IMG/VR virus record: IMGVR_UViG_3300046328_000221 | Coordinates: 1 to 64,000 of that record | Strand: one strand, 5' to 3' | Source: a virus | Length of the DNA stretch: 64,000 nucleotides | Part shown: piece after piece, positions 737 to 61,577 of the stretch | How the letters are laid out: each line of letters opens with the position of its first letter | Numbering within the stretch: the first letter of the stretch is position 1 | The notes under the pieces: generated by a model | What the model was told of the DNA's origin: nothing | The model's database searches: none | The model's input: only the letters and a program-made list of their open reading frames with translations | Made by a program: the position numbers and the translations under genes

Positions 737-830
737 TTGTTTTCTCCTTACGGTAATCCATCCACTTGAAAAGCAGAATCAGCGGTGAAGCAAGGTATAG
801 CCCTGCAACCATTCCCCATAGAAATGTCAT
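729..830 (-). CDS. small membrane peptide (MTFLWGMVAGLYLASPLILLFKW...)
   Basis: Read manually; 33 aa, one hydrophobic helix; ATGA overlap with 827..967. Confidence 0.55.
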   Translation of the reverse strand: MTFLWGMVAGLYLASPLILLFKWMDYRKEKTNV

Positions 831-967
831 TCTGCAATCTCCTCTGGAAATAGAAAGTCCAAGAAACCCAATACTGCATCTTCTGCTAAGGCTTTATCTT
901 CTGGTGACTTCCAGTATGTCTTATTAATGTAATCGTATGCTTGTTCTGCTATTTGTTTTTCATTCAT
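827..967 (-). CDS. hypothetical early protein (46 aa, MNEKQIAEQAYD...)
   Basis: Read manually; preceded by ACCCTAAAAGAA leader motif and TGTCATAAT -10. Confidence 0.6.
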   Translation of the reverse strand: MNEKQIAEQAYDYINKTYWKSPEDKALAEDAVLGFLDFLFPEEIAE

Positions 968-1011
968 ATTGGGTTCCGTTCTTTTAGGGTTTATACTATT
1001 ATGACAGAGAC

Positions 1012-1530
1012 TTAGGCGTTTGTCAACTCTGATTTGAAAGAATTTAGATAAATTTCTGCGGTAGGTAGTTCATCTAAACTAAATGATTCCTCAAAGCCAT
1101 TCCACTTAGTAGTAAACTTACGTGTAGAGAAATCAATAGTATATACACCCTCACAGAATAGATCGTCATTCTCAAACTCTGATTCGTCCTGGAGAGGAAT
1201 AGTTGCATTAGAATAAACTAATACCCTCAAGATATCGCAGCCAGTATCTCTAGTTAGACTAGGATACATAATAGAAAAGTCTTGACCTTGCTCAAATGTC
1301 ATCATATCTTCATCATTTACAAATGGCTTAGAGAGTTCTGCAAGTTCTTCCTGTGTAGCAAATCTTGCCTTGACCAATGATTTCTCAATCTTATCAAGCA
1401 TCTTGTGTTCTGAAATGAAATCTAGAATCCTGGTTCCAGTATATGAAGGGTAGCCATCCCATTGGCCATACTGTGCAACACGAGTACGTCCAGTAGAGTC
1501 AATCACCTTAGTTAGATTGCGAGTTCCCAT
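1012..1530 (-). CDS. conserved phage protein (MGTR...YGQWDGYPSYTG type)
   Basis: ORF track; start moved to ATG at 1530 after AGAAAGG RBS; QWDGYP motif typical of phage early proteins. Confidence 0.75.
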   Translation of the reverse strand: MGTRNLTKVIDSTGRTRVAQYGQWDGYPSYTGTRILDFISEHKMLDKIEKSLVKARFATQEELAELSKPFVNDEDMMTFEQGQDFSIMYPSLTRDTGCDILRVLVYSNATIPLQDESEFENDDLFCEGVYTIDFSTRKFTTKWNGFEESFSLDELPTAEIYLNSFKSELTNA

Positions 1531-1649
1531 TGGAAACCTTTCTTTAGGGTTTTTTCGATACTCAATTCTCTCACAGATTCTGGGAAAAGTCAAGTACTAT
1601 CGTAATTGTTTTTTCTATCGTAATTATCTTATTATTATGTAAAGTGAGG

Positions 1650-1676
1650 CCGACCACATTCGATCAGCTTTGTCAA
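1650..1676 (-). repeat. TTGACA-N15-GGTCGG element E1
   Basis: plus strand CCGACC 1650-1655, 15 nt, TGTCAA 1671-1676. Confidence 0.85.
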
Positions 1677-1680
1677 TAGA

Positions 1681-1710
1681 AAAACCCCCAGAGTTTCCTC
1701 TGAGGGCTAA
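1681..1710 (-). terminator. intrinsic terminator
   Basis: minus strand CCCTCAGAG-GAAA-CTCTGGGGG then U-tract, just after stop of 1722..2738. Confidence 0.75.
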
Positions 1711-1721
1711 TCTATTTTTGA

Positions 1722-2738
1722 CTAAGCCATTACGACCTGACGAACAACTTTCATTAGGCGGTTCTTTTCAGCATTGGTCATTGGGTCAAAACCACTAGCA
1801 CTTGCCAAGATAGATTCGTTAGAACCCTTACGCCCATTGCGATACCAATCCAAGCGTTCCGTTAGAGCGTTATAAGCACCCCAAGCAGTTCCTGAAATGG
1901 TGTCGTTGAATTGACCAACATAAATGTCATTGAGCAAGTCAATCTTAGTTGCGTGTTTGGTGTTTGACGCTTTTGCGTTTTCATCTTTTGGAGCAGGATA
2001 AGCAAGTTCAACAATCTTGTCGAATTGTGCTTTGGTAATTTCTGTTTCAATCATCTCATTAGCCATAGCAGAAAACTCGTCAATGTATTTGTGAGCCAAG
2101 CCCAACGCTTCACGAGCAACAGCAATCTTGCCCTCTGCTGTCTGTGTGTGTCTAATCTTGAATGTCTGCTTAGGAGCGTTCTTGCCCTTTAGAGAAGTCA
2201 AAGCCAAGTTTAGAGTGTTAGCACAAACAACACGAACAGGAGTGATACTTGCCTGAATAGCAATCGAACCGTCGTGTGAAGTATTGACAAGCAAGTAGTT
2301 GTCAATCTTATCAGCAACGCCATTTGGGTCAAGGGTAATTGAATTGGTCAATGCGATAGCACCAAAGACAACACGCCCACCACGAATAGAGCCAGCAGTT
2401 TCCCAACGTCCACCACCGTCTAGCAGGTTATCACCAAACGAGAATAGGTCTTCGTTCTGTAATGGAACATAGCGTTCACCAACGACACCAAGAATGTCAT
2501 TTGTGCTACGGTCAAAAGGGTTAGTCCTAGTCACGAATGAATAGTTCTTGTCGCTGTTGAAACCCTCTGGAGTTTCTACGTCCTCAAGGCGAACGTTCCA
2601 ATCGTTTAGTTTTGCCAAAGACAACATCTGTGCTGTGTCTACCTCATCAGCAAAGACTGTTCCCAATCCATGCCAAGCAGGTTGGCGAAGTGAAGCAAAT
2701 GCTGTTTCGCCGTTTACTGTTTCTAAGTCGTGAGCCAT
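1722..2738 (-). CDS. DUF932-like phage/plasmid protein
   Basis: MAHDLET start; PAWHGLG, VGERYVPLQN, WETAGSIRGGRVVF, NTSHDGS, TPVRVVCANTL, GTAWGAYNALTE motifs. Confidence 0.85.
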   Translation of the reverse strand: MAHDLETVNGETAFASLRQPAWHGLGTVFADEVDTAQMLSLAKLNDWNVRLEDVETPEGFNSDKNYSFVTRTNPFDRSTNDILGVVGERYVPLQNEDLFSFGDNLLDGGGRWETAGSIRGGRVVFGAIALTNSITLDPNGVADKIDNYLLVNTSHDGSIAIQASITPVRVVCANTLNLALTSLKGKNAPKQTFKIRHTQTAEGKIAVAREALGLAHKYIDEFSAMANEMIETEITKAQFDKIVELAYPAPKDENAKASNTKHATKIDLLNDIYVGQFNDTISGTAWGAYNALTERLDWYRNGRKGSNESILASASGFDPMTNAEKNRLMKVVRQVVMA

Positions 2739-2780
2739 AGGAGCCAACTTTCTTTTTAGGGGTGAATGTTTAGTAAGACT

Positions 2781-2809
2781 ATTATCCCACGAACCACTGA
2801 CAATGTCAA
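2781..2809 (-). promoter_or_regulatory. sigma70-type promoter with internal TGTC box
   Basis: minus strand TTGACA-17nt-GATAAT, with TGTC 12 nt before the -10. Confidence 0.75.
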
Positions 2810-2854
2810 GCGTATTTAGATAATTATTTGGGGAAAAATAGATCGTGTCGTAAC

Positions 2855-2881
2855 TTGACATCTGATCCAAGATCTGGTCGG
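2855..2881 (+). repeat. TTGACA-N15-GGTCGG element E2
   Basis: TTGACA 2855-2860, GGTCGG 2876-2881. Confidence 0.85.
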
Positions 2882-2892
2882 CCCCGAAGGGG

Positions 2893-2920
2893 GGCCAGTT
2901 TTACATCATGGCCAGGATGT
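2893..2920 (-). ncRNA. candidate H-type RNA pseudoknot
   Basis: minus strand ACAUC-CU-GGCCA-U-GAUGU-AAAAC-UGGCC gives two interlocking 5-bp stems. Confidence 0.45.
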
Positions 2921-2929
2921 TTCATACCA

Positions 2930-3103
2930 CTATGAAAATAGTGGACGTGTTAGTTTTTCAAGGTTATCTAGTTTATCAATATACTCTTCAAGTACATCAC
3001 GCATGTACCCTGCACTAACGTGTGCACTGTGGCTTGCAATATATTCATCGTGAAGCTCCACAGAATATTGTCTAATTAGTTTATTTAGTTTACGTTTACT
3101 CAT
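2930..3103 (-). CDS. hypothetical early protein
   Basis: ORF track; start moved to MSKRKLN. Confidence 0.6.
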   Translation of the reverse strand: MSKRKLNKLIRQYSVELHDEYIASHSAHVSAGYMRDVLEEYIDKLDNLEKLTRPLFS

Positions 3104-3281
3104 CTTCTTCTTCCTCATCTGGAACCTCTTCAACATCAATAGAGACAACATCTTGATATGTGATATCGCTATCCATGCTGTCTCCCCATGATTCCCATGC
3201 TAGGGCTTCTGCTGCTTCTTTAGATTCCGCTTCAATCTCTCCAGCAAATTCAATTGTCATTTCAATATAAAACTTTGGCAT
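3096..3281 (-). CDS. small acidic early protein
   Basis: ORF track; EIEAESKEAAEALA motif common in small phage proteins. Confidence 0.7.
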   Translation of the reverse strand: MPKFYIEMTIEFAGEIEAESKEAAEALAWESWGDSMDSDITYQDVVSIDVEEVPDEEEEDE

Positions 3282-3484
3282 TAATCCATCTCTCCGTCGT
3301 AGTATTTGTGTGAACAGTCAACACACATCTTTAGTTCTTCAAACCATATGTCATGGTCAACAGGTGTTTGGCAATAGACACAAGGTCGTGTCTCTGTGTA
3401 TTTATATTCTTGGTCACCCTCGCAAATATCGCAAAAGGGATTACAGTCAAAGCCACCTTCGTGGACTGGGCATTCAATCATCAT
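3281..3484 (-). CDS. Cys-rich (Zn-binding) early protein, probably leaderless
   Basis: CPVH..CNPFCDIC..CVYC..CVDC; ATG 7 nt after TAGAAT -10. Confidence 0.7.
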   Translation of the reverse strand: MMIECPVHEGGFDCNPFCDICEGDQEYKYTETRPCVYCQTPVDHDIWFEELKMCVDCSHKYYDGEMD

Positions 3485-3515
3485 ACCCACAATTCTATCC
3501 TGAGCCTCTGACATT

Positions 3516-3704
3516 TTAGCAACTCCCATCTGTAGGAATACGTTCTTCTGGTACGCCCATCATACGCAATACAGTTTGAGTTCTTTCAATAACACCCTGT
3601 ATATAATCACCCATTGGGTCGTTTATGGAAAGGGTATCAAGTTCAGGAATCAATTCTTCAAGGTCAATAATCAACCTATTGATAATAGCCTCATTACTCA
3701 TCAT
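3516..3704 (-). CDS. hypothetical early protein
   Basis: ORF track; start shortened to MMSNEAI. Confidence 0.6.
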   Translation of the reverse strand: MMSNEAIINRLIIDLEELIPELDTLSINDPMGDYIQGVIERTQTVLRMMGVPEERIPTDGSC

Positions 3705-3873
3705 AGCCATGTCCGTTCTGTAGAATGTAAATAAATTCAAGGGCCTCAAGGAATCCTTCATTGTATTTTCTATCCATAGTGTGGTCTATGTCATAGCCAG
3801 ATAGTTCTTCATTGTTGACAGACATTGCTAAAGATAGACGAGCCAACTCAATTTGCTTTTCTAATTCATTCAT
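3694..3873 (-). CDS. hypothetical early protein, probably leaderless
   Basis: MNELEKQ start 7 nt after TACAAT -10. Confidence 0.6.
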   Translation of the reverse strand: MNELEKQIELARLSLAMSVNNEELSGYDIDHTMDRKYNEGFLEALEFIYILQNGHGYDE

Positions 3874-3904
3874 AGATACCATTGTAGTCATACCCTCTGA
3901 CATT

Positions 3905-4099
3905 TTAGTCCTCCCACTCAGATACATCTTGGCCATTCAAAACGGCATTGGCATAATCGTAGCGGTCGTTATCGCTCAGGGTACCTAGTAGTTCCATCTG
4001 CTCCTCAGTGAAAGCGTCGTGGTCAGCAATAATAATCTTGCCACCACCATAGTTGCCATCCTCAGAAAAGTACAAACCATCGTATTCAACATAAGCCAT
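3905..4099 (-). CDS. small acidic early protein
   Basis: ORF track; AAGGAG RBS. Confidence 0.7.
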   Translation of the reverse strand: MAYVEYDGLYFSEDGNYGGGKIIIADHDAFTEEQMELLGTLSDNDRYDYANAVLNGQDVSEWED

Positions 4100-4215
4100 T
4101 AGTTATTCTCCTTTACGCAATCGCATTCTTGAACCATTAGTTTACCATTGACCACTGACACTACACCAAACTCATTACAGGTTTCGCAAAAGTGGATAGA
4201 CAAATTGCCTTGCAT
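4099..4215 (-). CDS. small Zn-ribbon-like protein (CETC...CDC)
   Basis: start moved to MQGNLS after AGAAAGG RBS. Confidence 0.6.
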   Translation of the reverse strand: MQGNLSIHFCETCNEFGVVSVVNGKLMVQECDCVKENN

Positions 4216-4315
4216 AGGGGTTCCTTTCTTTATACCTCTATTGTATAACAGGGGTACGACATTTTGGGGAACGTAAAGGGCGTGTCTTAAAGTTGTTATT
4301 GTTTTGTTATCTGAG

Positions 4316-4342
4316 CCGACCACAAAATGGATCAGTTGTCAA
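4316..4342 (-). repeat. TTGACA-N15-GGTCGG element E3
   Basis: CCGACC 4316-4321, TGTCAA 4337-4342. Confidence 0.85.
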
Positions 4343-4364
4343 GCTGCCAAGATCAGGGCAAAAG

Positions 4365-4395
4365 AAAAACCCCTACCATTTCTGATAGGGGCTAA
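4365..4395 (-). terminator. intrinsic terminator, paralogous to 1681-1710
   Basis: minus strand GCCCCTATCA-GAAA-TGGTAGGGGT then U-tract; same AGATTAGCCC lead-in. Confidence 0.75.
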
Positions 4396-4406
4396 TCTTA
4401 TTTTAT

Positions 4407-4853
4407 TTAGATAAGGTCAATCACAGCAGAGTATGAACTTGCTGAAACTTCCTCTTGGGTAGTCATACGCAAGATACGCAAGTTGCGTTCTAGGATTTCC
4501 TTACGAGTTGTGTATTCACGACCAAAACTTTCTTTCTGATTTGGGCGTGTTGGTTCTGTTGGCTTGGTTGGGAAACCTAGCACATCAGTATCAAACTCAA
4601 CAGAGATAGAGTTGTAGCGGTATGAAGAGGTTAGACGAGCAGGTGAAGAACTATCAGTTCCAATGTTGTCAGGGTTGCTTAGGGCTTCCTTAGCCTTAGT
4701 CAATACCTCAGCCTCATACGCCTTTACTTCTTCCTTGTATGTCTTTACTGCCTCAGAGTAGTTAGCAACCTCTTCGTCAATCTTAGCAATAGACTTCTCA
4801 ATGTCAGCGATTAGAGATGAGGTTGGGATTTTTACAGACAGGGTTCTAGCCAT
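4407..4853 (-). CDS. coiled-coil early protein
   Basis: ORF track; ACCCCTAAAAGAAAG leader and TGTC promoter upstream. Confidence 0.8.
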   Translation of the reverse strand: MARTLSVKIPTSSLIADIEKSIAKIDEEVANYSEAVKTYKEEVKAYEAEVLTKAKEALSNPDNIGTDSSSPARLTSSYRYNSISVEFDTDVLGFPTKPTEPTRPNQKESFGREYTTRKEILERNLRILRMTTQEEVSASSYSAVIDLI

Positions 4854-5007
4854 AATTAGACTTCTTTCTTTTAGGGGTATTTGTTTATTACTTGATTATT
4901 GTATCAGAGGGGTCTGACATTTTAGTTGCTAGGTGAGAGCCTTACATCTACTTCTAGAATAACTCATCTTGTGCTTTGTAGAAACCTAACAAACTAAAAT
5001 TAGTTTA

Positions 5008-5154
5008 TTACTTTACAGTAGTCCAGCGGTCTTGTCCGTTCACCAAAAGGCGAACACGAGCAGAACCAGACTTGTTCTTTACGATTTCCTGAATTGTTCC
5101 TACAACGCCAGACTTAGCGGTGGTGAACTGTGAGCCAACAGTTAGAGTGTTCAT
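5008..5154 (-). CDS. small beta-barrel (SH3-like) protein MNTLTVGSQFTTAKSGVVGTIQEIV...RWTTVK
   Basis: Read manually; 48 aa; AGAAG RBS; downstream of TTGACA-17-TATAAT promoter. Confidence 0.7.
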   Translation of the reverse strand: MNTLTVGSQFTTAKSGVVGTIQEIVKNKSGSARVRLLVNGQDRWTTVK

Positions 5155-5228
5155 TTTTGCTTCTTTCCGATACAGAGTATCTTGTTTGCTAGTGATTTCT
5201 AGTTATTTACAACTTTTGTTGTATCTCT

Positions 5229-5257
5229 ATTATAGGGCTACCCTACGACATTGTCAA
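5229..5257 (-). promoter_or_regulatory. consensus sigma70 promoter with TGTC box
   Basis: minus strand TTGACA-ATGTCGTAGGGTAGCCC-TATAAT. Confidence 0.85.
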
Positions 5258-5325
5258 GTGTTTTGGCATAATTTCTTTTGTGGATTTTCACAAACTTTTT
5301 GGGGATTTTTTGTGCGTGTCGTAAG

Positions 5326-5352
5326 TTGACTGGGGATCAAGAATGTGGTCGG
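5326..5352 (+). repeat. TTGACT-N15-GGTCGG element E4
   Basis: TTGACT 5326-5331, GGTCGG 5347-5352. Confidence 0.85.
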
Positions 5353-5356
5353 CCCC

Positions 5357-5505
5357 CTATCGCCAATTAAAAATTACAGCAAGAATAATTATTCCAACTA
5401 GAATAAAGAATGGTCCTGCAAAAATTATGCAGCCTAAGTCCATTGCTCCTATTGCAGGATAATCACTATCGCTATTGTCAACACTACCCATAAAAAGTAC
5501 TCCAT
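5357..5505 (-). CDS. two tandem tiny hydrophobic peptides (5449..5505 MEYFLWVVLTIAIVIILQ; 5357..5443 MDLGCIIFAGPFFILVGIIILAVIFNWR)
   Basis: Read manually; co-oriented, each one transmembrane length; AGGAG before the second. Confidence 0.45.
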
Positions 5506-5506
5506 C

Positions 5507-5698
5507 CTATTTACCATTATCCCATACAACTTCTGAACAGTCAACACACTCAATTGCAATATTGATACCGCCATAAGTCACTGCGGTTAGGTCATGGTGA
5601 AAGTGTTCTTTTACACGTCCCTCTATCCAATCACTCTCATATCGCATACCTGCACTAAACACTTCTGGATTTTCTTGGTAGGCCTTCAACTTTTCCAT
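5507..5698 (-). CDS. hypothetical early protein (NIAIECVDCSEVV)
   Basis: ORF track; TAATG coupling to upstream gene. Confidence 0.7.
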   Translation of the reverse strand: MEKLKAYQENPEVFSAGMRYESDWIEGRVKEHFHHDLTAVTYGGINIAIECVDCSEVVWDNGK

Positions 5699-6219
5699 TA
5701 CTCTGCACTTCCTCTAATGATAATCCAAATAAGTGCCTGCATTGAGCGTGGTGTCATTCCAAATTCGAATGCAACCTTTTTTACTGCATTAGCCAATTCG
5801 TTATAGGTTGACTGATTAGGTGTTTTCTTTTCAATACCAACTGCTCTCAACATCCATACGTCAATTACTACGGCCTGCTCATCACCTGCAATAGCCTTAG
5901 CGAATGCATTAGTTTTCATTCCCTTTAGTGCACTGAATCCCATAGTCAAAGAATTGTTAGCCATAGTCATGTTGTTTTTGAATCCTGGTACATGTTCACC
6001 TAGTGAGAAACTAATAGCCTTAGTGACATTGGCAGACCAACGTTCACGAGGTGAGAATGCACTAACAACACTTGCACCAACTTCAAGATAGGTGTCTAGG
6101 TTCCTTGCAACTTCAAGTGCAACCTTTTCTGCGTCAACATACCATTTACTGGCCTGCTCTACTTGTCCAAAGGTTGCCTTGCTTACTAGTGCACGATAGA
6201 TTTCTACGTAGTTAGTCAT
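5698..6219 (-). CDS. conserved phage protein with SAFSP..W..N / KTNAF / VVIDVW motifs, possibly HhH-GPD glycosylase-related
   Basis: ORF track; VVIDVWMLR and C-terminal 'QALIW' resemble the HhH-GPD catalytic region; function inferred. Confidence 0.6.
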   Translation of the reverse strand: MTNYVEIYRALVSKATFGQVEQASKWYVDAEKVALEVARNLDTYLEVGASVVSAFSPRERWSANVTKAISFSLGEHVPGFKNNMTMANNSLTMGFSALKGMKTNAFAKAIAGDEQAVVIDVWMLRAVGIEKKTPNQSTYNELANAVKKVAFEFGMTPRSMQALIWIIIRGSAE

Positions 6220-6273
6220 GGTGACTTCTTTCTTTAGGGGTTGATAAGATAAGTTTACTACAGGGGTACGACA

Positions 6274-6396
6274 TTATAGGAATTCGAATGGATCCCGATC
6301 TTGGAATATTTCCTCAAAGTCATAGAGTGAGTACGCTTCTGGATTAGCGTAGTAGTCTTGCAAAGCTTCTTTTATTTCCTCTGCTTGTTCATCCAT
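6274..6396 (-). CDS. small acidic protein (40 aa)
   Basis: Read manually; GAGG RBS; stop abuts next TGTC promoter box. Confidence 0.6.
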   Translation of the reverse strand: MDEQAEEIKEALQDYYANPEAYSLYDFEEIFQDRDPFEFL

Positions 6397-6397
6397 G

Positions 6398-6697
6398 TTA
6401 GTATTCCTCTCCGCTTATGAATCCCTCAATACGAGTATTCTCAACAACCTGCATTGCGGTCACTTCAATACTTCCGTCACGATTACGAACTTGGAAGTCA
6501 CCAATTTTTGGCAGGGTAAGCATACGATAGTAGTCACCGTCATCATAGGCGTGAATCGCTTCAACACATACGTCAACCATTTCAATTGGAATAGGTGGAT
6601 AACAATTTCCTCTAAGGTGCATGCCAACTGCATCTCTCAAGGTCACGTTAGGGAATAGGTCATTGTCTTGAATCTCTGCTACAAAGTTGCTGCCCAT
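6398..6697 (-). CDS. hypothetical early protein (HLRGNCYPPIP)
   Basis: ORF track. Confidence 0.75.
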   Translation of the reverse strand: MGSNFVAEIQDNDLFPNVTLRDAVGMHLRGNCYPPIPIEMVDVCVEAIHAYDDGDYYRMLTLPKIGDFQVRNRDGSIEVTAMQVVENTRIEGFISGEEY

Positions 6698-6792
6698 TAG
6701 TATCCTGCCTTCTCTAGAATTGATAGAATTTGTTCAATAGTGTCGCTATCAAGGTTATCAATAGCCGCTTCGTTGATTACGTTTTCAAACAT
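6697..6792 (-). CDS. small acidic protein (31 aa)
   Basis: Read manually; TTGACA-17-TATACT promoter at 6824-6852. Confidence 0.6.
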   Translation of the reverse strand: MFENVINEAAIDNLDSDTIEQILSILEKAGY

Positions 6793-6838
6793 GCAACTCA
6801 TTTCTTTTGGGGTTATTAGTATTAGTATAAACTATTTG

Positions 6839-6991
6839 TTAGTAATTGTCAAGGGCCTTACGCTTATTTTCTGAGCGTGTCCCCTTGTATTTTTTAGGCA
6901 CGACAACTTGCTTCTTGCCAGCCTTTAGCATAGAGTGGAATAACGCTTGGCTCTCTGCCTTGCGTCTTGCTTCATTTCTTTTACCTAACAT
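6839..6991 (-). CDS. small basic protein (50 aa), probably leaderless
   Basis: Read manually; K/R-rich; ATG 6 nt after TAAGAT -10. Confidence 0.6.
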   Translation of the reverse strand: MLGKRNEARRKAESQALFHSMLKAGKKQVVVPKKYKGTRSENKRKALDNY

Positions 6992-7057
6992 ACAACTATC
7001 TTAGCATTACCCTATGACATTTTGGGAAATTGGGGCAAATTTCTTAATTAACGTAAT

Positions 7058-7107
7058 TTGACATTTGATCAAAAATGGGGCCGACCACACCTGCCAGCTT
7101 TTGTCAA
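7058..7107. repeat. element E5, double-armed: TTGACA-N17-CCGACC-N15-TGTCAA
   Basis: inverted TTGACA/TGTCAA arms around the asymmetric core. Confidence 0.85.
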
Positions 7108-7125
7108 GCCAGCAAGTGGGTGTGT

Positions 7126-7239
7126 CTAAAACGGTGGGGTATCTTTTTCAATCCAACCTGCCATTTTCCAAAGAATGTATCCCTGCATTATGTTGAAAGC
7201 CAAAGATAGAATTAGTGCTAGTGTTAGAATGTTTTCCAT
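7126..7239 (-). CDS. small membrane peptide (37 aa)
   Basis: Read manually; MENILTLALILSLAFNIMQGYILW. Confidence 0.55.
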   Translation of the reverse strand: MENILTLALILSLAFNIMQGYILWKMAGWIEKDTPPF

Positions 7240-7409
7240 TAGTTCCCCTTTACAGCATTACGGAATCGAATCTCATCAAAGCGTGAGTTATCATTTTTGA
7301 ACATAGAAACAAAATCACTAACCATTTTTGAAAATAATGCTGGGTGTGTTTTGTCGCTTGCGTAGTTTAGAATCTTTGCGGTTTCGACATAGTCTTTGCG
7401 TGTCATCAT
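7239..7409 (-). CDS. conserved small phage protein (MTRKDY...NSRFDEIRF)
   Basis: Read manually; MTRKDY and NxRFD motifs recur in phage early proteins; AAGGA RBS. Confidence 0.75.
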   Translation of the reverse strand: MMTRKDYVETAKILNYASDKTHPALFSKMVSDFVSMFKNDNSRFDEIRFRNAVKGN

Positions 7410-7421
7410 TATTTTCTATCC

Positions 7422-7574
7422 TTAGTTTTTGTGAGCGAGTGAAAAGGTAAAGTAGCCCTCAAAGTGTGGGCTTGGGATTTTGTGGTGAAACATAGGCATT
7501 AGGTTTAGGTTGTTAGCCATTAGACCCAATCCACCGCATACCTCGCAAGGTGTTAGTTCTTCATCTGAATACAT
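7422..7574 (-). CDS. small protein with CEVCGGLG motif
   Basis: Read manually; AAGGG RBS; TGTC promoter upstream. Confidence 0.55.
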   Translation of the reverse strand: MYSDEELTPCEVCGGLGLMANNLNLMPMFHHKIPSPHFEGYFTFSLAHKN

Positions 7575-7623
7575 AGGTTTTCCCTTCTTAGTTGTTTTTA
7601 GTTTAGCATTACCCTACGACATT

Positions 7624-7767
7624 TTAGAATGTCTTGTTTAGGTGTAGGTTCACCCATTTTTGCCACATAGGGCCAGGCATATCGTTAGGCTTTACCCCTG
7701 CGTGAATGACCTTTAGCATTTTGTTGTAAAAGTCTTTTTCTGATTCTGTCATTCTTGGCTTTGGCAT
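7624..7767 (-). CDS. hypothetical early protein (47 aa)
   Basis: Read manually; AGAAAGGG RBS; own TGTC promoter. Confidence 0.6.
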   Translation of the reverse strand: MPKPRMTESEKDFYNKMLKVIHAGVKPNDMPGPMWQKWVNLHLNKTF

Positions 7768-7819
7768 TAGTTGCCCTTTCTTTGTTTGTTAGTTTATTTT
7801 AGCAGAGGGGTCTGACATT

Positions 7820-7984
7820 TTAGCGGTAGCCATAGCCTAGGTATTCTGCGAAATCAACAGGGTCTAAGTCTAGGTAAGTGATAGCACTAGCCAACGGCAT
7901 TAGTCCGTCAAGTTCATCACAGGTAGGGCATACAACAGTATCGCTAGTGAAAACACCCTCGCAGTAAACACACATTTTATCCAT
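7820..7984 (-). CDS. Zn-ribbon protein (CVYC...CPTC)
   Basis: Read manually; GAAAGG RBS; own TGTC promoter. Confidence 0.65.
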   Translation of the reverse strand: MDKMCVYCEGVFTSDTVVCPTCDELDGLMPLASAITYLDLDPVDFAEYLGYGYR

Positions 7985-8108
7985 TAGTTTTCCTTTCATC
8001 TGATAGTTCTACATTACCATAGGGGTCTGACATTTATGGCACAAACACGCCTTTTTTCTTTGTAAGTTTCTACAAACTTTTTTGGAGGTTTCTTACAATG
8101 ATCTTAAG

Positions 8109-8129
8109 TTATCCACAGAGTTATCCACA
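8109..8129 (+). promoter_or_regulatory. tandem DnaA boxes
   Basis: TTATCCACA at 8109-8117 and 8121-8129, 3-nt spacer. Confidence 0.7.
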
Positions 8130-8132
8130 GGA

Positions 8133-8159
8133 CCGACCAGGTTTCCCTGGATTTGTCAA
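8133..8159 (-). repeat. TTGACA-N15-GGTCGG element E6
   Basis: CCGACC 8133-8138, TGTCAA 8154-8159. Confidence 0.85.
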
Positions 8160-8230
8160 TAGTCTCCCTCATAGATTGAATATTCCTCAGAGCCACAGCC
8201 ACAGCATGGACGGTCTTCGCACGAGCACAT
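8156..8230 (-). CDS. Cys-rich micro-peptide MCSCEDRPCCGCGSEEYSIYEGDY
   Basis: Read manually; GAAAGG RBS and own TGTC promoter. Confidence 0.6.
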   Translation of the reverse strand: MCSCEDRPCCGCGSEEYSIYEGDY

Positions 8231-8275
8231 AGTTTTCCTTTCGATTAAAATAAGATTAGCAGAGACATACGACAT

Positions 8276-8502
8276 TTAGTCGAATGCCCACTGGGAAGCA
8301 TACATCTCCCCAATCATCTCCTCGTGAGCAATCCGTGCCTGAGCACGGTCAGAAGCAGCCTGCTCCTCTGGGGTAAGGATTTCCTCCTCCCAGAAGTCAT
8401 CTAGGTCCCAACCGAAATCTTGTGCCATATCTTCCATTACTGCTCTCCTTCTGATAGAAATTCCTGAACATCTTCATCTGTAAAATCACCGTATCTAGCC
8501 AT
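8276..8502 (-). CDS. two coupled acidic micro-proteins (8437..8502, 21 aa; 8276..8437, 53 aa)
   Basis: Read manually; TAATG overlap; AAGGAG RBS; first ORF leaderless after TAAGTT -10. Confidence 0.55.
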
Positions 8503-8580
8503 AAGATAAACTTAGCACACACCTACGACAATTACAACACGACACGCCAGAATTGGGAGAAATTTTTAAAGCTTCTTAAC

Positions 8581-8629
8581 TTGACAAACTGTGATCTTTG
8601 GGGTCGGCTCCTTTCGGAGTTTTTGTCAA
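8581..8629. repeat. element E7, double-armed: TTGACA-N15-GGTCGG-N16-TGTCAA, with an internal CTCC-TTTC-GGAG hairpin
   Basis: direct reading. Confidence 0.85.
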
Positions 8630-8641
8630 ATCGACACGCCG

Positions 8642-9066
8642 TTAGAAGGGCAATCCATTTTTCTTTATGTCAATGACCATCTCAACTAAAAAGCCAATGG
8701 TTATGATTACGATTACTGTTTGAAAAATTGCGGTAAGCATTAGATTAGTTCCTTATCGTTGATTAGCATTATGTCAATGAGGGTGATTAGTTCCTCAAGT
8801 TCTGAGATAGGTAGTTTATTTTCATTCATAGCATTATCCTAACATAGAGGGCTGACAATTATAGCCAAGCCATTACTGAGAAAGTTCCTAGAGCGATAGC
8901 CCCAAGGGTAGCAAGCAAGTAGATCCACATAGCATTACCTTTCTTAGTTATTGTAAGTGTAGCAGGATACACAGACATTCTTGCCGTTATCCTTGATGAT
9001 TGTTAGAACACGACCTTCGCAAATCTCGCAACGGTCTGTCTTTGTTATTACCTTTAGTGAATTCAT
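8642..9066 (-). CDS. four micro-ORFs (8944..9066 CEIC/CVSC Zn-ribbon; 8859..8930 TM peptide; 8740..8829; 8642..8740 TM peptide)
   Basis: Read manually; RBSs or leaderless starts; TGTC promoters between them. Confidence 0.55.
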
Positions 9067-9164
9067 CTGGAATTCCTTTCTTTATCTATACCTATAACCT
9101 ATCACAGGGGTATGACAATGTCAAGAGTATTTGAGGAAATTTTTATAACAAACATATAACATAG

Positions 9165-9185
9165 TTATACACACCCTGTGGATAA
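9165..9185. promoter_or_regulatory. inverted DnaA box pair
   Basis: TTATACACA-ccc-TGTGGATAA. Confidence 0.7.
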
Positions 9186-9187
9186 GT

Positions 9188-9212
9188 CCGGCCAGGATCC
9201 TGAAAAAGTCAA
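9188..9212 (-). repeat. variant element E8 (TTGACT-N13-GGCCGG)
   Basis: CCGGCC 9188-9193, AGTCAA 9207-9212; followed by ATCGACACGCCG as at E7. Confidence 0.6.
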
Positions 9213-9369
9213 ATCGACACGCCGTGTTTTATGAAAGATTAATTAAGTTAACATTAAATAACGAAATGATAACAAAGGGTCAAAACAGGGCAAAAAGGGC
9301 AATAAATGTCAGACCCCCCTGTTAGTGTATTAGTAGATAAAGAAATATATAAAAGAAATGAGGTCAGAA

Positions 9370-9516
9370 ATGACAGTTAAGATTTACAAGACAGATGGTT
9401 CATTCTACTACCAGTGGTTGGACCGTGATGAAGTTAGAATGCTACCTCGCATTACTAAGCAATACACTAGCCTAACAAAGGTTGGACTTATCAAGGGGTT
9501 CAGTATCTCTCGCTAA
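9370..9516 (+). CDS. hypothetical early protein (48 aa)
   Basis: Read manually; GAGG RBS; TGTC promoter at 9305. Confidence 0.6.
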   Translation: MTVKIYKTDGSFYYQWLDRDEVRMLPRITKQYTSLTKVGLIKGFSISR

Positions 9517-9567
9517 TTGTCAGGGGTATCTGATACAGTATTACTAAATAGATAAGGATAAAACATT

Positions 9568-9765
9568 ATGGATAAAACACTAGGTCAGATTACAGATGAA
9601 ATTTACAACGCTGTAAAAAACTTTCACACTGCCTCTATGGGCAACGATAGAAAAGAAATAGAAAATGCTCAGGCAGAATACGCAGGTATGATTTCTATCT
9701 ATGGAACTAAAGCAGTTGCCGATGTAGTAGAATTTTACAACGAAACAGTTATTAGAAGGGCTTAG
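9568..9765 (+). CDS. hypothetical early protein
   Basis: ORF track; AAGGA RBS; TGTC promoter at 9516. Confidence 0.7.
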   Translation: MDKTLGQITDEIYNAVKNFHTASMGNDRKEIENAQAEYAGMISIYGTKAVADVVEFYNETVIRRA

Positions 9766-9768
9766 AAA

Positions 9769-9855
9769 ATGATTACACTTACATTCGAAACTTGGGAAGA
9801 GTTTGACCAAGCAATCGCAGGTATTGCTAGTTTAGAAATTGAGATAACAAAATAA
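9769..9855 (+). CDS. micro-protein MITLTFETWEEFDQAIAGIASLEIEITK
   Basis: Read manually; AAGGG RBS. Confidence 0.55.
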   Translation: MITLTFETWEEFDQAIAGIASLEIEITK

Positions 9856-10013
9856 AAGACTTGGGGGGCGTATAGTCCCTGAGTGCGGACTATAATTTTT
9901 GATAATTGTCTGCCAGATCGTGTATCATACATCAGCTCTACATTCACAGATTTAGTAATTTTCATTTCTGAAAACATATTCAGATTTCTGAATTTCTATG
10001 GTATACTATATAC

Positions 10014-10541
10014 ATGAAGCAATGTACAAAATGTCATCAAACAAAAGATTTTTCAGAATTTCACAAAAAATCTAAACTTCCAGGTGGACTAGCATATCAC
10101 TGTAAATCCTGTGTACGTGAATATGATATGAAAGAGCATGATCCTAAAAGAGTTATGCCTAGAAAGCTTAAAGCTGATTTAGTTCATTGTCGTAAATGTA
10201 ATCAATATTTAGATAAGTCAAAATTTTGGGGGCAGCTAACATATTGCAAAGAATGTTCTAAACTAGTAGGACATTCTGCAAACCTAAAAAGATTTGGCCT
10301 TACAGTAGAAGACTATATTGACCTAGAAAGATCACAAAATGGTGTATGTGCTATTTGCAAAGATCCAGAAATAAATAAAAGACGTTTATCTGTTGATCAT
10401 AATCATTCATGTTGTCCAGGTAGTGGTTCTTGTGGAAAATGTATTAGAGGACTTTTGTGTTCAAATTGCAATACATTTCTTGGAAATGCCAAAGACAATG
10501 TTGAAATATTAAAAGCTGCTATAAGATATTTGCAAAAGTAA
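10014..10541 (+). CDS. Endonuclease VII-family nuclease with N-terminal Zn fingers (probable homing endonuclease)
   Basis: CAIC...LSVDHNH...IRGLLCSNCNTFLG motif; two CxxC repeats; leaderless TGGTATACT promoter. Confidence 0.85.
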   Translation: MKQCTKCHQTKDFSEFHKKSKLPGGLAYHCKSCVREYDMKEHDPKRVMPRKLKADLVHCRKCNQYLDKSKFWGQLTYCKECSKLVGHSANLKRFGLTVEDYIDLERSQNGVCAICKDPEINKRRLSVDHNHSCCPGSGSCGKCIRGLLCSNCNTFLGNAKDNVEILKAAIRYLQK

Positions 10542-10574
10542 AATATTTTTCAGATTTTGCGGTATACTAATTAC

Positions 10575-10628
10575 ATGACTGATTGTAACTGTAGCTGCAA
10601 TGGATCTTGTCCATGCAAGCCTAATTAA
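10575..10628 (+). CDS. metallothionein-like micro-peptide MTDCNCSCNGSCPCKPN
   Basis: Read manually; 5 Cys in 17 aa; ATG 6 nt after TATACT -10. Confidence 0.5.
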   Translation: MTDCNCSCNGSCPCKPN

Positions 10629-10780
10629 AGACTAGATAATTAACTAGTTCATAAAACATATACATCCACATAAATGCAACGGTAGATGCAAAGATAACCC
10701 ATAACGTATTTTTAATCATTGTAGCTCCATGCAAATAGAAATATAACAATAACCACACATGTTGTAATAAACCCTATCAT
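10621..10780 (-). CDS. two tiny membrane peptides (10712..10780; 10621..10719)
   Basis: Read manually; coupled to 10780..10950 by TAATG overlap. Confidence 0.45.
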
Positions 10781-10950
10781 TACGATATGCCAAACTCTTT
10801 AAGCTTAATATGTACAAGTTTTACTGATACATTAAGTTCTTTAGCGATCTCGCCAACTTCTTTTCCTTGTACAATATATGCATTACGTAGCCAATCTTCT
10901 TGCTGATGTGGCTTTGTATCTCTAAATGCGTTAGTTTCTTTGTTTTCCAT
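10780..10950 (-). CDS. small HTH DNA-binding protein
   Basis: WLRNAYIVQGKEVGEIAKELNVSVKLVHIKLKEFGI; AAGGAG RBS; TTGACA-17-TACACT promoter; similar to 62041..62193. Confidence 0.7.
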   Translation of the reverse strand: MENKETNAFRDTKPHQQEDWLRNAYIVQGKEVGEIAKELNVSVKLVHIKLKEFGIS

Positions 10951-11044
10951 AGTCTCTCCTTAATGAATGTAAAGTGTATCACATATATGATGGTTTGTCA
11001 AATATTTGTCGGTACATAAGCAGCACAGCTGCTCTGATGAAACA

Positions 11045-11251
11045 TCACCATTTGCCAACAGGACAAGTAGCTTGACGTAATGTAGATTTCAATTGCATAA
11101 AACATCCGCACTTGGTGCATTTCATCAAATTCTTATTAAGAGCAGGACATTCCATACATATAGCCAAACGCTCTTCTTTTAAATCTTTATCTGATCTTGG
11201 TTGTCTTGGATCAAATAAATCTAAAAACTCAACATCTCCGTTATCCTTCAT
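11045..11251 (-). CDS. Cys-rich protein (RLAICMECP..CTKCGCF..ATCPVGKW)
   Basis: ORF track; conserved-looking Cys pattern. Confidence 0.7.
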   Translation of the reverse strand: MKDNGDVEFLDLFDPRQPRSDKDLKEERLAICMECPALNKNLMKCTKCGCFMQLKSTLRQATCPVGKW

Positions 11252-11259
11252 TATTAAAT

Positions 11260-12010
11260 GATATCACATTCTTGCGAGGATAGTTCCTATGGGGATTTGG
11301 GTATGGGTTTTGTTAAGTTATACCCCGAAAGTTTAAAATCCTGTCTATGGGGCATACAAGGCTTTGCAGAAGTATTAATCGATATCACATTTATTGGATG
11401 GGACATCCATATTTTATGTTTATGGGGATTTGGGATCTCTATATCACGCCGACGAATAAATCCGAAGAGCTTTATATCAAAGTTATCCACATATATAATC
11501 AGGCTGTTAATAACTTTTAAAAACTATATTATAATTAAATCATTATGACTATTGAAGCTTGGATAGGTACCATAGTTGGTATATCTACAATAATCACATC
11601 AGCCACGCTTGGCATTAGATGGTTAGTCAAACATTATTTCGCAGAGATCAAGCACGAACTAAAACCTAATGGTGGTTCGTCAATAAAAGATCAGGTTAAT
11701 AGAGTAGAAAAAGACATAGTTGATTTAAAGAATCAAAACATAAAAGGTGAAGAATATCACGAAAAACTAGATAATAAAATTGATCACCTAACAGAGCTTT
11801 TTATTCAATACGTATCTCGCCAGAAGTAAAACTGCGAAAACTTAAAACCCATTATATTATTATATATATAAAACTATCTAACTATATTTAATATATCTTA
11901 TATCTTTTATCTAATATATATTTATATATAATACACCTTGTTTAAAAAATATTCCCATAATTCATGTTAAATCTATGTTAAATCTTTGTAACAATTCTGA
12001 AACAATTGAA
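11260..12010. other. candidate replication origin region
   Basis: TATGGGGATTTGGG repeats at 11288 and 11421; DnaA box 11483-11491; extremely AT-rich 11850-11960; 11-bp phased repeats 11964-12007. Confidence 0.4.
11545..11829 (+). CDS. single-TM plus coiled-coil membrane protein (possible lysis accessory)
   Basis: N-terminal hydrophobic helix; ELKPNGGSSIKDQVNR motif common in actinophage membrane proteins. Confidence 0.7.
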   Translation: MTIEAWIGTIVGISTIITSATLGIRWLVKHYFAEIKHELKPNGGSSIKDQVNRVEKDIVDLKNQNIKGEEYHEKLDNKIDHLTELFIQYVSRQK

Positions 12011-12028
12011 ATATGATATAATTTATTA

Positions 12029-12076
12029 AACTAGCATTCAGGATAGTCTCTCAACCCACCATTCTGAGTGCTAGTT
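12029..12076 (+). ncRNA. candidate small hairpin RNA with C/U-rich loop
   Basis: 16-bp stem with two G-U pairs (favours + strand RNA); 16-nt loop AGUCUCUCAACCCACC; TGATATAAT -10 at 12014-12022. Confidence 0.6.
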
Positions 12077-12103
12077 CTATTTATATGGTATAATTTGATT
12101 ACT

Positions 12104-12487
12104 ATGACTAATTGCTGCCCAGATATTGTTGGTGCCAATCCAGTAAGTTTTCAATGGGTTGTTACAAGAGGAGACACCTCTCCACTTCGTGTATATTTTT
12201 ATGAGCCAGATGAAGTATCTTTCTTTGATATGACAGGTTGGGACTTTACTTCAACTGCCTATGACTTTAAGAATGACATATCTGATGAATTAGAGATTTC
12301 TGTTGGTGAAGGCTATGTTGATATTACAGCTCCAGCAAGCATTACAGGGTATTGGGGTACAGGATATGCCACTACCGTTGCAGAATTAGCATTTGATCTC
12401 CAGGTAACATTAACTGACGATTCCGTTTGGACCTCAGTAATTGGAACCATTAAGGTTCTTGGAGACGTAACAGGAGGAAGTTTATAA
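12104..12487 (+). CDS. virion structural protein (BppU-like N-terminal domain)
   Basis: VTRGDT motif; paralog of 15214; start after TGGTATAAT. Confidence 0.65.
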   Translation: MTNCCPDIVGANPVSFQWVVTRGDTSPLRVYFYEPDEVSFFDMTGWDFTSTAYDFKNDISDELEISVGEGYVDITAPASITGYWGTGYATTVAELAFDLQVTLTDDSVWTSVIGTIKVLGDVTGGSL

Positions 12488-14361
12488 TGGCCACACCAAT
12501 TATTAAAATTGTACCTATGCCAGGCATACAGGTTGCTGGACCAGCAGGAGTTAATGGAGTCGGAGTACCAACTGGAGGATCAGAAGGTCAAGTTCTTGCA
12601 AAAGCATCAAACAATAACTATGATACTGAATGGGTAAATGCTGGTGGCAGTGGAGTAAGCTCCACAGTTCCTTTTGAGCTAACAGATACTAATAACGATG
12701 TCCTTTTGAGCATTACTCAAACTAACGTTGGAACCACTCGTATTGAAACACCACAAGATGATCTTTCTCTTCGTTCTGCAAGAGATATTACTCTTTATCC
12801 TGGAAGTGATGGACCTGGAAAGGTTTACATTGGATGGGGAGATGCTCAATATACACCAAACTCAGGAAATGAAGTTGCAACTAAAGGCTACGTTGATGAT
12901 GCAACTGGTGCAAGTGCAGTCAAGTACCGTGTTTGGGGCTACCCAACAAATGATGCAATTGCTATTATGCCAACCACCGACAACGAGTCAATCGCACTCA
13001 AATCAAGTGATGCTGCTGCGATTCGTTGGCACGTTCGTAATAACACTGGCTCTATGCAACTTCTTTCGGCTACAGTAACTGCTGGTGATGGATACCAAGT
13101 TATCTTTACCATTAATGAGCAAAACTCAGTTCCTGCTACTGGTGCTGGGAAGTACTACCAGATTAACTGCCCAAATAACTCTGCTTATAATGGTGCTTTT
13201 ATTGCTATATCAGCAACTACGACTACACTCACTTTTATATATGAAAGTGATCCAGGAGTCTTTGACCCTACAGATGCATCTATATCTCAACCATCTGTCT
13301 ACTCACAGTTTGAGGTAGATTCAGATGGTGCTCATGTCAAGATTGCTGACTGGACTTCTGGTCCAGGAGGTTATAGCCAGCAGTGGGACTTTACAAAAGA
13401 GGGTGCAATTCATTTCCCATATGGACCATCAAACCAAAGAACAGGTTATGGAGATGTTCTAAGATTTGCAACATCATTTGATCAGTCAATCATTACTGGA
13501 GCACCTGCTACAGAAGGAACTCCTAATGCTAATCGCCTAGTTATTGCTGGACAAGATGGCTATGATGGAACAGGCTATGATGGAGAAGGTGGAGACATTT
13601 ATCTATGGGCTGGTATCGGTGGAGGAACCACTGGTGGTGGTGGAGACATAAAAATTGATGCTGGTAATGGTGCTGTAGATGGTAATGGTGGCTATGTTAA
13701 GATCCGTGGTGGATACTCTGAAACTGTTAATGGTGGATATGTAAACATTGATGCTGGAGATTCAAACACTGGTAGCGGAGGATATGTAAACATTAGAGCT
13801 GGTGAAAATATCAATGGAACAGGCTCTGGTGGACAGGTTTATATTCAAGGTGGTTATAGTGCTGATCCTACACTTGGTGGAGACGTTCATATAGAAACTT
13901 CTCAGTCTGGAAAAATTGTATTAGCTGGTGCTGGCGGAGAGTTCTTGAATGACGCTACTGTATCAAATAATCAGATTGCAACTATTGGACACGTAGCTAC
14001 AGCAAAAAGTACTTTTGAGCGAATCAATGTTTACTATGAGACACCTGTATCAGTAGATCTATCTCACGTTGGTTCTCTGCTATATGCAGCTGTAGCAGGA
14101 GATACTTTTGCAACATATCAAATTCCTACTAATGCATCAGTTGCGTTTCCCATCGGATCTGAAATTAAGTTTGCTACTAATGGAGGCTCTGTCTGGTTCA
14201 TCTCTGCTATAGATACCGAGATAACTACGCTAATTGGAGAAGGCAGTAATGGATACACTGGAATAAACTACAATTTTATTGTTCCAACCAACTCAACTGC
14301 AACTCTTCTAAAAGTTGATACTGATCGTTGGATTCTTTCTGGACTAAGACTTACAGACTAA
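12487..14361 (+). CDS. glycine-rich tail fibre-like protein
   Basis: PTGGSEGQVLAKASNNNYDTEW motif; GGxVxIxAG repeats; C-terminal TIPTNASVAFPIG...DRWILSG domain. Confidence 0.75.
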   Translation: MATPIIKIVPMPGIQVAGPAGVNGVGVPTGGSEGQVLAKASNNNYDTEWVNAGGSGVSSTVPFELTDTNNDVLLSITQTNVGTTRIETPQDDLSLRSARDITLYPGSDGPGKVYIGWGDAQYTPNSGNEVATKGYVDDATGASAVKYRVWGYPTNDAIAIMPTTDNESIALKSSDAAAIRWHVRNNTGSMQLLSATVTAGDGYQVIFTINEQNSVPATGAGKYYQINCPNNSAYNGAFIAISATTTTLTFIYESDPGVFDPTDASISQPSVYSQFEVDSDGAHVKIADWTSGPGGYSQQWDFTKEGAIHFPYGPSNQRTGYGDVLRFATSFDQSIITGAPATEGTPNANRLVIAGQDGYDGTGYDGEGGDIYLWAGIGGGTTGGGGDIKIDAGNGAVDGNGGYVKIRGGYSETVNGGYVNIDAGDSNTGSGGYVNIRAGENINGTGSGGQVYIQGGYSADPTLGGDVHIETSQSGKIVLAGAGGEFLNDATVSNNQIATIGHVATAKSTFERINVYYETPVSVDLSHVGSLLYAAVAGDTFATYQIPTNASVAFPIGSEIKFATNGGSVWFISAIDTEITTLIGEGSNGYTGINYNFIVPTNSTATLLKVDTDRWILSGLRLTD

Positions 14362-15083: not shown

Positions 15084-15213
15084 TTGTCCTCCTTAGAACA
15101 AAAACTTCTTTTGCAAGAAGTTAGATATCAATTATACCATTGTTTACCTTCCGTTTTAAGTCTCATATATTTTATTGAAATAAAATTATCAATTATGGTA
15201 TAATTAAGACATT

Positions 15214-15606
15214 ATGGCTAGAACTTCTGGATACAATGTTGGTGCAATTCCACCTCAAGTTACATGGACAGTCGTTCGTGGAGATACCGCTTCATTTAAG
15301 GTATATGTAACAGATGATGCTAAGCAGCCACTAAATATTCCAGACTGGACAATCTCTATGAAGATTAAGCGTCCAAACTTACTGTCGGATGCTGGAGTAA
15401 TTACAGATGATGCAACACTAAAGTTTACCCTAACTCCAGAACAAGATCCAGATGACTTGCCTGGAGAATTTACAGTTTTTCTATCTGATACAGAGTCTGT
15501 AGAGTTAGCAACAGGAGATATTTTTGATATCCAGCTATCACAGGTAGGAACTGTATGGACAGTTGCCCAGGGTAAAATGATTATCCTGGAAGATGTAACT
15601 GACTAA
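15214..15606 (+). CDS. virion structural protein (BppU-like)
   Basis: VVRGDT motif; paralog of 12104. Confidence 0.65.
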   Translation: MARTSGYNVGAIPPQVTWTVVRGDTASFKVYVTDDAKQPLNIPDWTISMKIKRPNLLSDAGVITDDATLKFTLTPEQDPDDLPGEFTVFLSDTESVELATGDIFDIQLSQVGTVWTVAQGKMIILEDVTD

Positions 15607-23833: not shown

Positions 23834-23870
23834 CTAGACAAAGTCACTTGATAGTGCTATAATCATATTT

Positions 23871-26073: not shown

Positions 26074-26098
26074 ACTAATATCATGATATAATTGGCCT

Positions 26099-50911: not shown

Positions 50912-50929
50912 CCGTTGAAAGGGTTGAGA

Positions 50930-61560: not shown

Positions 61561-61577
61561 TATGATATAATTTTCTT

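Follow-up and report, generated by a model that had tools for sequence, protein, structure and literature searches.

Our analysis indicates that positions 12029 to ~12082 of the window (the whole 64,000-nucleotide stretch of viral DNA under study) likely encode a minimal trans-acting antisense small RNA (sRNA) that regulates the replication operon of the phage, a reading to which we assign a probability of approximately 0.66, with both expression of the RNA and repression by it being inferred. The sequence-level basis for this reading is shown, consisting of a conserved promoter–hairpin–U-tract layout, covariation within the hairpin stem, and co-variation between the hairpin loop and its distant target; existence as a discrete RNA, repression by pairing, spread of this repression by translational coupling, and timing all remain inferences. 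A first-pass annotation had already put forward a candidate trans-acting sRNA aimed at the lead start codon of the replication operon, a proposal that the comparative evidence detailed below supports, and its coordinates for the extended -10 element, the hairpin, the loop match, the operon promoter, and the gene chain all held to the base.

The genome containing the window is a 94,045-bp IMG/VR contig with direct terminal repeats and a G+C content of 38.7%. Within the window, a leftward early region (position 1 to ~9 kb) is followed by a small rightward gene cluster (~9.9–11.8 kb) and a long rightward structural block (12–50 kb), behind which lies a replication module encoding a 65-aa protein (phrog_5189), a 103-aa protein (phrog_11101), a DnaB-like helicase, a DnaG-like primase, a DNA polymerase III alpha-like protein, and RecA. 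Among cultured phages, the nearest kin of both the helicase and the 65-aa protein are found in Stanwilliamsviridae Streptomyces phages (41–48% identity, same gene order). A WhiB-family gene (PF02467, 43.6 bits) is located outside the window at G000:C1:75235-75408; carriage of a WhiB gene is a hallmark of actinobacteriophages. No integrase matching PF00589 or PF00239 was found in the phage genome, and the public sequencing runs containing the stretch are exclusively freshwater and aquatic DNA metagenomes. Based on the WhiB gene, the lack of an integrase, the Stanwilliamsviridae kinship, the G+C content, and this freshwater/aquatic-only provenance, we take the phage to be virulent and to infect low-GC freshwater Actinobacteria, the host thus being inferred. 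No RNA run was listed among the public sequencing runs as containing this phage, and transcript evidence of any kind is absent. Searches of GenBank phages with positions 11200-13200 (blastn) and with the 127-aa neighbour protein (tblastn) yielded no match, and a scan for tRNA and tmRNA genes detected none.

All elements of the putative sRNA locus lie on the plus strand. Its extended -10 promoter, P1 (TGATATAAT, 12014-12022), is called on the basis of its sequence and its conservation in relatives, with the hairpin beginning six bases past it. The predicted sRNA (12029-12084, ~52–56 nt, with both ends inferred rather than mapped) comprises a 5′ arm (12029-12044), an apical loop (AGTCTCTCAACCCACC, 12045-12060), a 3′ arm (12061-12076), and a U-rich tail (12077-12084). 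The stem contains 16 pairs, two of which are G-U, and encloses a 16-nt loop; the fold has a predicted energy of -21.6 kcal/mol, with z = -4.0 relative to dinucleotide shuffles. Upstream of P1, an AT-rich region at 11964-12007 (given as context only) carries phased boxes of the GTAAC/GAAAC type, with GTTAY..GTTAY motifs being repeated at the same place upstream of the sRNA -10 element in relatives (L002-L052); it is possible, judging from sequence alone, that these boxes constitute a regulator-binding site that replaces a -35 element. Downstream of the stem, the U-tract in the window is interrupted (UUCUAUUUAU) and our terminator scan of the window did not call the hairpin, owing to its 16-nt loop (3–8 nt in the usual definition); read-through into the gene beginning at 12104 is therefore possible. 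A second extended -10 element, P2 (TGGTATAAT, 12086-12094), is conserved in all relatives and is positioned 9 nt before ATG 12104, at the near-leaderless start of the structural gene block.

Within the apical loop, the seed UCUCAACCC (12049-12057) is the exact complement of 50921-50929; i.e., at the DNA level, TCTCAACCC in the loop is the reverse complement of GGGTTGAGA, which sits flush against ATG 50930. The resulting 9-bp loop/target duplex has a predicted energy of -14.1 kcal/mol. The first-pass annotation had cautioned that such a 9-mer match is plausible by chance, and this caution held, as five 9-mers complementary to the loop are present in the 94-kb genome; on its own, the match in the window thus proves little. 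It is for this reason that the case beyond chance has to rest on conservation and co-variation in relatives, and not on the 9-mer of a single genome.

Relatives (47–68% identity) of the downstream gene at 12104-12487 led to the collection of 51 IMG/VR loci, all of which share the same layout, in which a P1 extended -10 element is followed within a few bases by a long hairpin and then a T-run, with P2 lying only a few bases ahead of an ATG. A second, protein-seeded search together with a scan for the loop 14-mer raised the set to 83 distinct versions of the sRNA locus, across which the arrangement reads TGnTATAAT, 3–11 nt, hairpin, T-run, and a second TGnTATAAT. A -10 hexamer lies 3–11 nt before the stem in 80 of these 83 versions (with the TG extension in 64), and at least six T residues occur within 10 nt past the stem in 63 of them. 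In a 43-sequence alignment, double compensatory changes are seen at every one of the 14 consensus stem pairs, with pairing in 96% of cells; this level of covariation was reached by none of 500 shuffles, and slid-partner controls were only 29–48% paired. In contrast to the covarying stem, the loop is nearly invariant across the alignment (GUCUCUCAUACCCAC), measuring 14–25 nt in relatives. A covariance model (R1) built from this alignment detects a single copy in the genome containing the window, at 61 bits. Among loci matching the loop 14-mer exactly, 39 of 80 were full sRNAs according to the covariance model, compared with 0 of 80 for a chance control using the window's own variant 14-mer. The model identified no sRNA on 50 fragmentary contigs carrying the target gene, but these stop short of the sRNA locus. 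One locus (L189, IMGVR_UViG_3300002835_004754) retains P2 and the downstream gene without any hairpin upstream, and is possibly a natural loss, on a contig that does not extend to the replication operon. When the whole window was compared with the Rfam covariance models (6C and every other family), no match attained the gathering score; at E≤5, five sRNA loci returned only spurious microRNA and lncRNA rows.

As inferred from sequence, the locus bears the signature of a small RNA gene: a promoter that abuts the stem, covariation of that stem, an open loop that is conserved, and a U-tract. A rival explanation is that the hairpin is only an intrinsic terminator, or a transcript-stabilising structure, for transcription arriving from upstream, that its loop is conserved on unrelated grounds, and that its complementarity to the replication start is coincidental. 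In favour of this view, a stable stem followed by a T-run is indeed what characterises a Rho-independent terminator, and five chance 9-mers do occur in the genome. Unlike such a terminator, however, the element has a conserved -10 abutting its stem, possesses a far larger and invariant loop (14–25 nt) that termination does not need, and varies in its loop in concert with a distant start region. Nor can the matched changes seen at the same gene in at least three classes, as described below, be put down to coincidence, and we consider the terminator-only explanation very unlikely.

The gene to which the loop is complementary heads the replication operon. Its promoter (50825-50853, plus strand) consists of TTGACA (50825-50830), a 17-nt spacer, and TATACT (50848-50853) preceded by TGG, all located inside the 3′ end of the ORF at 50369-50911. 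This promoter is kept in 80 of 84 distinct relatives, in most of which TTGACA-N17-TAnnnT lies ~94–114 nt before the start. Retention of these hexamers within a coding region despite synonymous freedom suggests a possible dual constraint, for both coding and promoter function. Since the conserved promoter sits ~100 nt upstream of the start, ORF 50930 would be the first gene of the transcript, with a leader of ~70 nt. The target site (GGGUUGAGA, 50921-50929) is situated between a Shine-Dalgarno (SD) sequence (AAAGGG, ~50918-50923) and AUG 50930. The lead ORF (50930-51127, plus strand) encodes the 65-aa phrog_5189 protein, of unknown function, which is highly conserved, with >600 IMG/VR relatives; an AlphaFold model predicts a beta-hairpin plus helix (pLDDT 85), and a fold search with this protein gave no PDB fold match and nothing informative. 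The second ORF (51127-51438, plus strand; 103 aa, phrog_11101) begins at an ATG overlapping the lead-ORF stop (TAATG, 51124-51129), and itself overlaps the following ORF, encoding the DnaB-like replicative helicase (51431-52651, plus strand; phrog_19, E 9e-67), by 8 nt (ATGAATAA, 51431-51438), with the primase, polymerase, and RecA genes further downstream. The placement of ORF 50930 first behind a consensus promoter and in a chain with the helicase gene, as originally annotated, was thus confirmed, the chain being borne out by the TAATG and ATGAATAA overlaps. Given this chain of overlapping stops and starts (50930, 51127, 51431), translational coupling is plausible, albeit inferred only from the overlaps themselves.

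Several further features of this start region were noted. A small mRNA hairpin (AACC-GTTGAAAG-GGTT, 50910-50925) overlaps the SD sequence and part of the target; in many relatives, a TTGAAAG loop is kept between the upstream stop codon and the start while the stems differ (GTTC..GAAC, TACC..GGTA). The possibility that TTG 50924 is the real start, with a CAA in the loop mirroring the start codon, was entertained but dropped, as the SD spacing fits ATG 50930 and the first ATG of some relatives is out of frame. In L053, L066, L070, and L133-L135, the motif TGGGTATGG lies inside codons 1–3 of the phrog_5189 homologue, whose N-terminus reads MGM...; at these loci, the target motif is kept while the first residues of the protein change. 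In the Streptomyces phage Mildred21, the gene order is maintained, but the corresponding gene has an ordinary GAGGAGG-GTG start lacking a similar motif.

Complementarity was assessed in the 33 contigs that hold both the sRNA and an ORF 50930 homologue, with the start region defined as -30 to +12. Covariation of the loop with the ribosome-binding site in relatives had been put forward in the first-pass annotation as a check on its proposal, and the outcome was positive: in 30 of 33 same-genome pairs, the start region contains at least seven contiguous Watson-Crick complements to the loop from its own genome, with at least three compensatory classes. The longest such complement extends to 12 nt (GGGTATGAGAGA in G008). 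The remaining three pairs are weak, with only 5–6 contiguous complements (7 with one G-U in G029). The usual site in relatives is (U)GGGUAUG(AGA), in which AUG is the start codon itself. When 613 start regions drawn from five complete genomes served as controls, 22 of 25 distinct pairs had their cognate match in the top 0–4%, with a further pair at slightly less than 5%. Across the five complete genomes examined, phrog_5189 was the only ortholog family with a complement at the true start in all of them. A genome-wide ranking of targets had likewise been suggested in that annotation; when carried out by raw duplex energy in five genomes, it was dominated by G-rich glycine-codon repeats, such that the cognate site was not the top match and this version of the ranking was uninformative.

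The loops and start regions of these pairs fall into matched classes. In the canonical pair (class A), the loop UCUCAUACCC faces the target GGGUAUGAGA. The pair in the window (class A′; loop UCUCAACCC, target GGGUUGAGA) has lost exactly one base pair relative to the canonical one: its loop is the canonical loop minus one U, its start region is that of the L100 type minus one A, and the missing U and the missing A are partners in the duplex. Class B (loop UACCCCACCC, target GGGUGGGGUA) provides a 10-nt perfect complement in G025, G081, and G083, its loops being of the type CUCUACCCCACCCCAC and its targets reading AUGGGUGGGGUAAUG; in a further variant (G090), CCCCCACCCCCCCC is paired with GGUGGGG. 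Finally, an SD-register class (G038 and G029) uses the 5′ half of its loop, which pairs instead with the SD sequence (GGAGAGACA, GGGAGAC). When loops and targets were exchanged in a cross-class matrix, cognate matches in the three main classes measured 9–12 nt, vs. 4–7 nt between A-type and B-type partners. At least three compensatory classes can thus be counted (those of the window, of class B, and of the SD register in G038). Because common descent links many of the class A pairs, the number of independent events is approximately 4 or 5, and not 33. The later classes incur no look-elsewhere penalty, as the gene in question had been fixed by the first class, and from the cross-class and control frequencies we estimate the joint chance probability of the matched classes to be far below 1e-6. 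That the loop and the target start region change together is shown for the sequences, and we regard this as the decisive evidence for pairing.

Sequences that are complementary on one strand also represent the same duplex site in inverted orientation, and it could be contended that both places are copies of a double-stranded DNA motif bound by a single DNA-binding protein; the target does adjoin replication genes, where sites of origin or regulator binding might be expected. However, one copy is always found in the loop of a covarying stem, a context relevant only in single-stranded nucleic acid, while the other is always found at a start codon or SD sequence. Moreover, the matched segment shifts its position along the loop and has a variable length (7–12 nt), in contrast to what a fixed protein site would show. 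This explanation thus appears very unlikely to us.

Other loop complements were also considered. A candidate second target at 60532-60540 (GTGGGTTGA), within a Cas4-like gene (59927-60736), was rejected as a chance occurrence, given that it falls in conserved Trp-Val codons and has no counterpart in class B. The 269-aa product of this gene carries a C-terminal Cys cluster (CKTCPIKEAC) and resembles Cas4/RecB-type nucleases, as judged by inspection only, with no comparison against a family library. The 9-mer at 71662 sits in a promoter spacer and was likewise discarded, while the likeness of the loop (CUCAUA-CCC) to an initiator tRNA anticodon loop was treated as a by-product of pairing with GGGUAUG. 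In G032 (the contig of L095/L154), a 13-nt perfect loop complement (GGTGGGTATGAGA) is present at ~92355-92367 in sRNA-strand orientation, at an internal ATG of a 121-aa frame, the class B homologue of which has no matching site; this may be either a chance occurrence or a lineage-specific second target. On the minus strand of the window, the start region (AAGGAGAGACTATG) of a 56-aa ORF (10780-10950) is complementary over 9 nt to the 5′ portion of the loop (12044-12052); the only relative in which this family was detected does not share the match.

Complements of this last kind bear on another rival view, in which the RNA acts mainly on host mRNAs, leaving the phage start region as a secondary target or a decoy. 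C/U-rich loops can pair with many purine-rich SD regions, of which the 9-nt match at the 10780-10950 start is an example, and the host genome is unknown. Against this, the phage site tracks changes in the loop, which would be needless were the loop fixed by host targets. We thus hold it to be very unlikely that host mRNAs are the main targets, while acknowledging that such targets would not exclude the main reading.

As to when the sRNA would be made, the window contains 19 copies of the sequence TGNTATAAT, where 5.25 would be expected; positions 1-12013 are free of them, and approximately a dozen immediately precede structural or late ORFs. Several of these end 6–9 nt before an ATG (12086-12104, 15196-15214, 23855-23871, 26084-26099, and 61563-61578), a gap that implies leaderless or near-leaderless mRNAs; leaderless mRNAs are a common feature in Actinobacteria. 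P1 belongs to this same TGnTATAAT class fronting structural genes, and because the class is shared, we infer that sRNA levels would rise with structural-gene transcription.

We thus propose the following model for the antisense sRNA. P1, as its own extended -10 promoter, would drive transcription of the sRNA, with the single long hairpin doubling as terminator and its open C/U-rich apical loop serving as the seed. The partner of this loop would be the translation initiation region of ORF 50930 (the 65-aa lead ORF), 39 kb downstream, with pairing falling between the SD sequence and the AUG in the window and across the AUG itself in most relatives. Pairing would block 30S binding at ORF 50930, and, via the overlap chain, less of the phrog_11101 protein and of the DnaB-like helicase would be translated. 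Expression of the replication genes would in this manner be turned down as structural-gene transcription rises. As for the direction of this effect (shut-down or timing, in the terms of the first-pass annotation), the inference draws solely on where the pairing falls, over the SD/AUG, and on the promoter class shared with the structural genes.

Two alternative forms of logic accept that the pairing is real. In the first, the sRNA would activate or stabilise the replication mRNA, e.g., by opening the hairpin at 50910-50925; in the second, the roles would be reversed: P1 transcripts would continue into the structural operon, with the hairpin as their leader or attenuator, and the replication mRNA would be the regulator acting upon it. 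Co-variation reveals only that two partners interact, and not which of them regulates the other; the weak U-tract in the window may allow P1 transcripts to continue into 12104, and a local mRNA hairpin does overlap the target. On the other hand, pairing covers the AUG in most relatives, which normally blocks initiation, good U-tracts are present in relatives, and the occurrence of P2 between the hairpin and the gene in all relatives means that this gene is not dependent on read-through. Taken together, activation and reversed roles are considered unlikely, and repression of the lead ORF by the sRNA remains our preferred reading.

Lytic phages have so far provided few examples of conserved regulatory RNAs, and we found none described from phages of freshwater Actinobacteria. 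Structure covariation combined with matched evolution of a defined target is also rare for a purely computational sRNA call. The finding suggests that, in a large and globally distributed group of phages, the passage between replication and virion production is controlled at the level of RNA, and the natural orthogonal seed/target pairs represent possible small, chaperone-independent regulators for use in Actinobacteria. A bolder reading, which we deem unlikely, is that the non-cognate loop/target classes (A, the deletion found in the window, B, and B′) constitute specificity or "incompatibility" groups among co-infecting lytic actinophages. Were this so, the sRNA of each phage would silence the replication operon of any relative of the same class, amounting to an RNA-based form of exclusion or competition, comparable to P1/P7 heteroimmunity or plasmid incompatibility, among virulent phages of abundant freshwater Actinobacteria.

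Among known systems, the proposed sRNA bears a likeness to the c4 antisense RNA of phages P1 and P7 and, in its logic, to the CI RNA of phage P4, each being a small phage RNA directed against the ribosome-binding site of the first gene of an operon of its own phage. The c4 RNA pairs in trans with the ribosome-binding-site region of the first gene of such an operon and shuts off the genes downstream, and its specificity classes (P1 vs. P7) likewise stem from matched changes in RNA and target. However, c4 is released from an operon transcript through RNase P cleavage, pairs via two short complementary segments, and acts in lysogenic immunity in temperate phages, whereas the RNA described herein has its own promoter and a putative terminator, forms a single hairpin encoded 39 kb away from the target, comes from a phage lacking an integrase, and bears no sequence relation to c4. 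A parallel can also be drawn with the CopA/CopT-tap-repA system of plasmid R1, where an antisense loop prevents translation of a short lead ORF on which the replication gene depends through translational coupling. Whereas CopA is encoded in cis and matches its target along its full length, the RNA proposed here is trans-encoded and has a 7–12-nt seed, with coupling being inferred. The actinobacterial 6C sRNA binds mRNAs, including that of dnaB, through C-rich loops and without a chaperone (PMC6486639). As with 6C/B11, the present RNA probably operates in the same host clade and would employ a C-rich apical loop on G-rich mRNA without Hfq or ProQ (PMC6486639), and class B loops (CCCCACCCC) resemble those of 6C; unlike the phage sRNA, for which there was no Rfam match, 6C is host-encoded and has several hairpins and many targets. 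In our reading, the phage RNA thus belongs to none of the c4, CopA, or 6C groups, and instead represents a new sRNA family of a known mechanistic kind.
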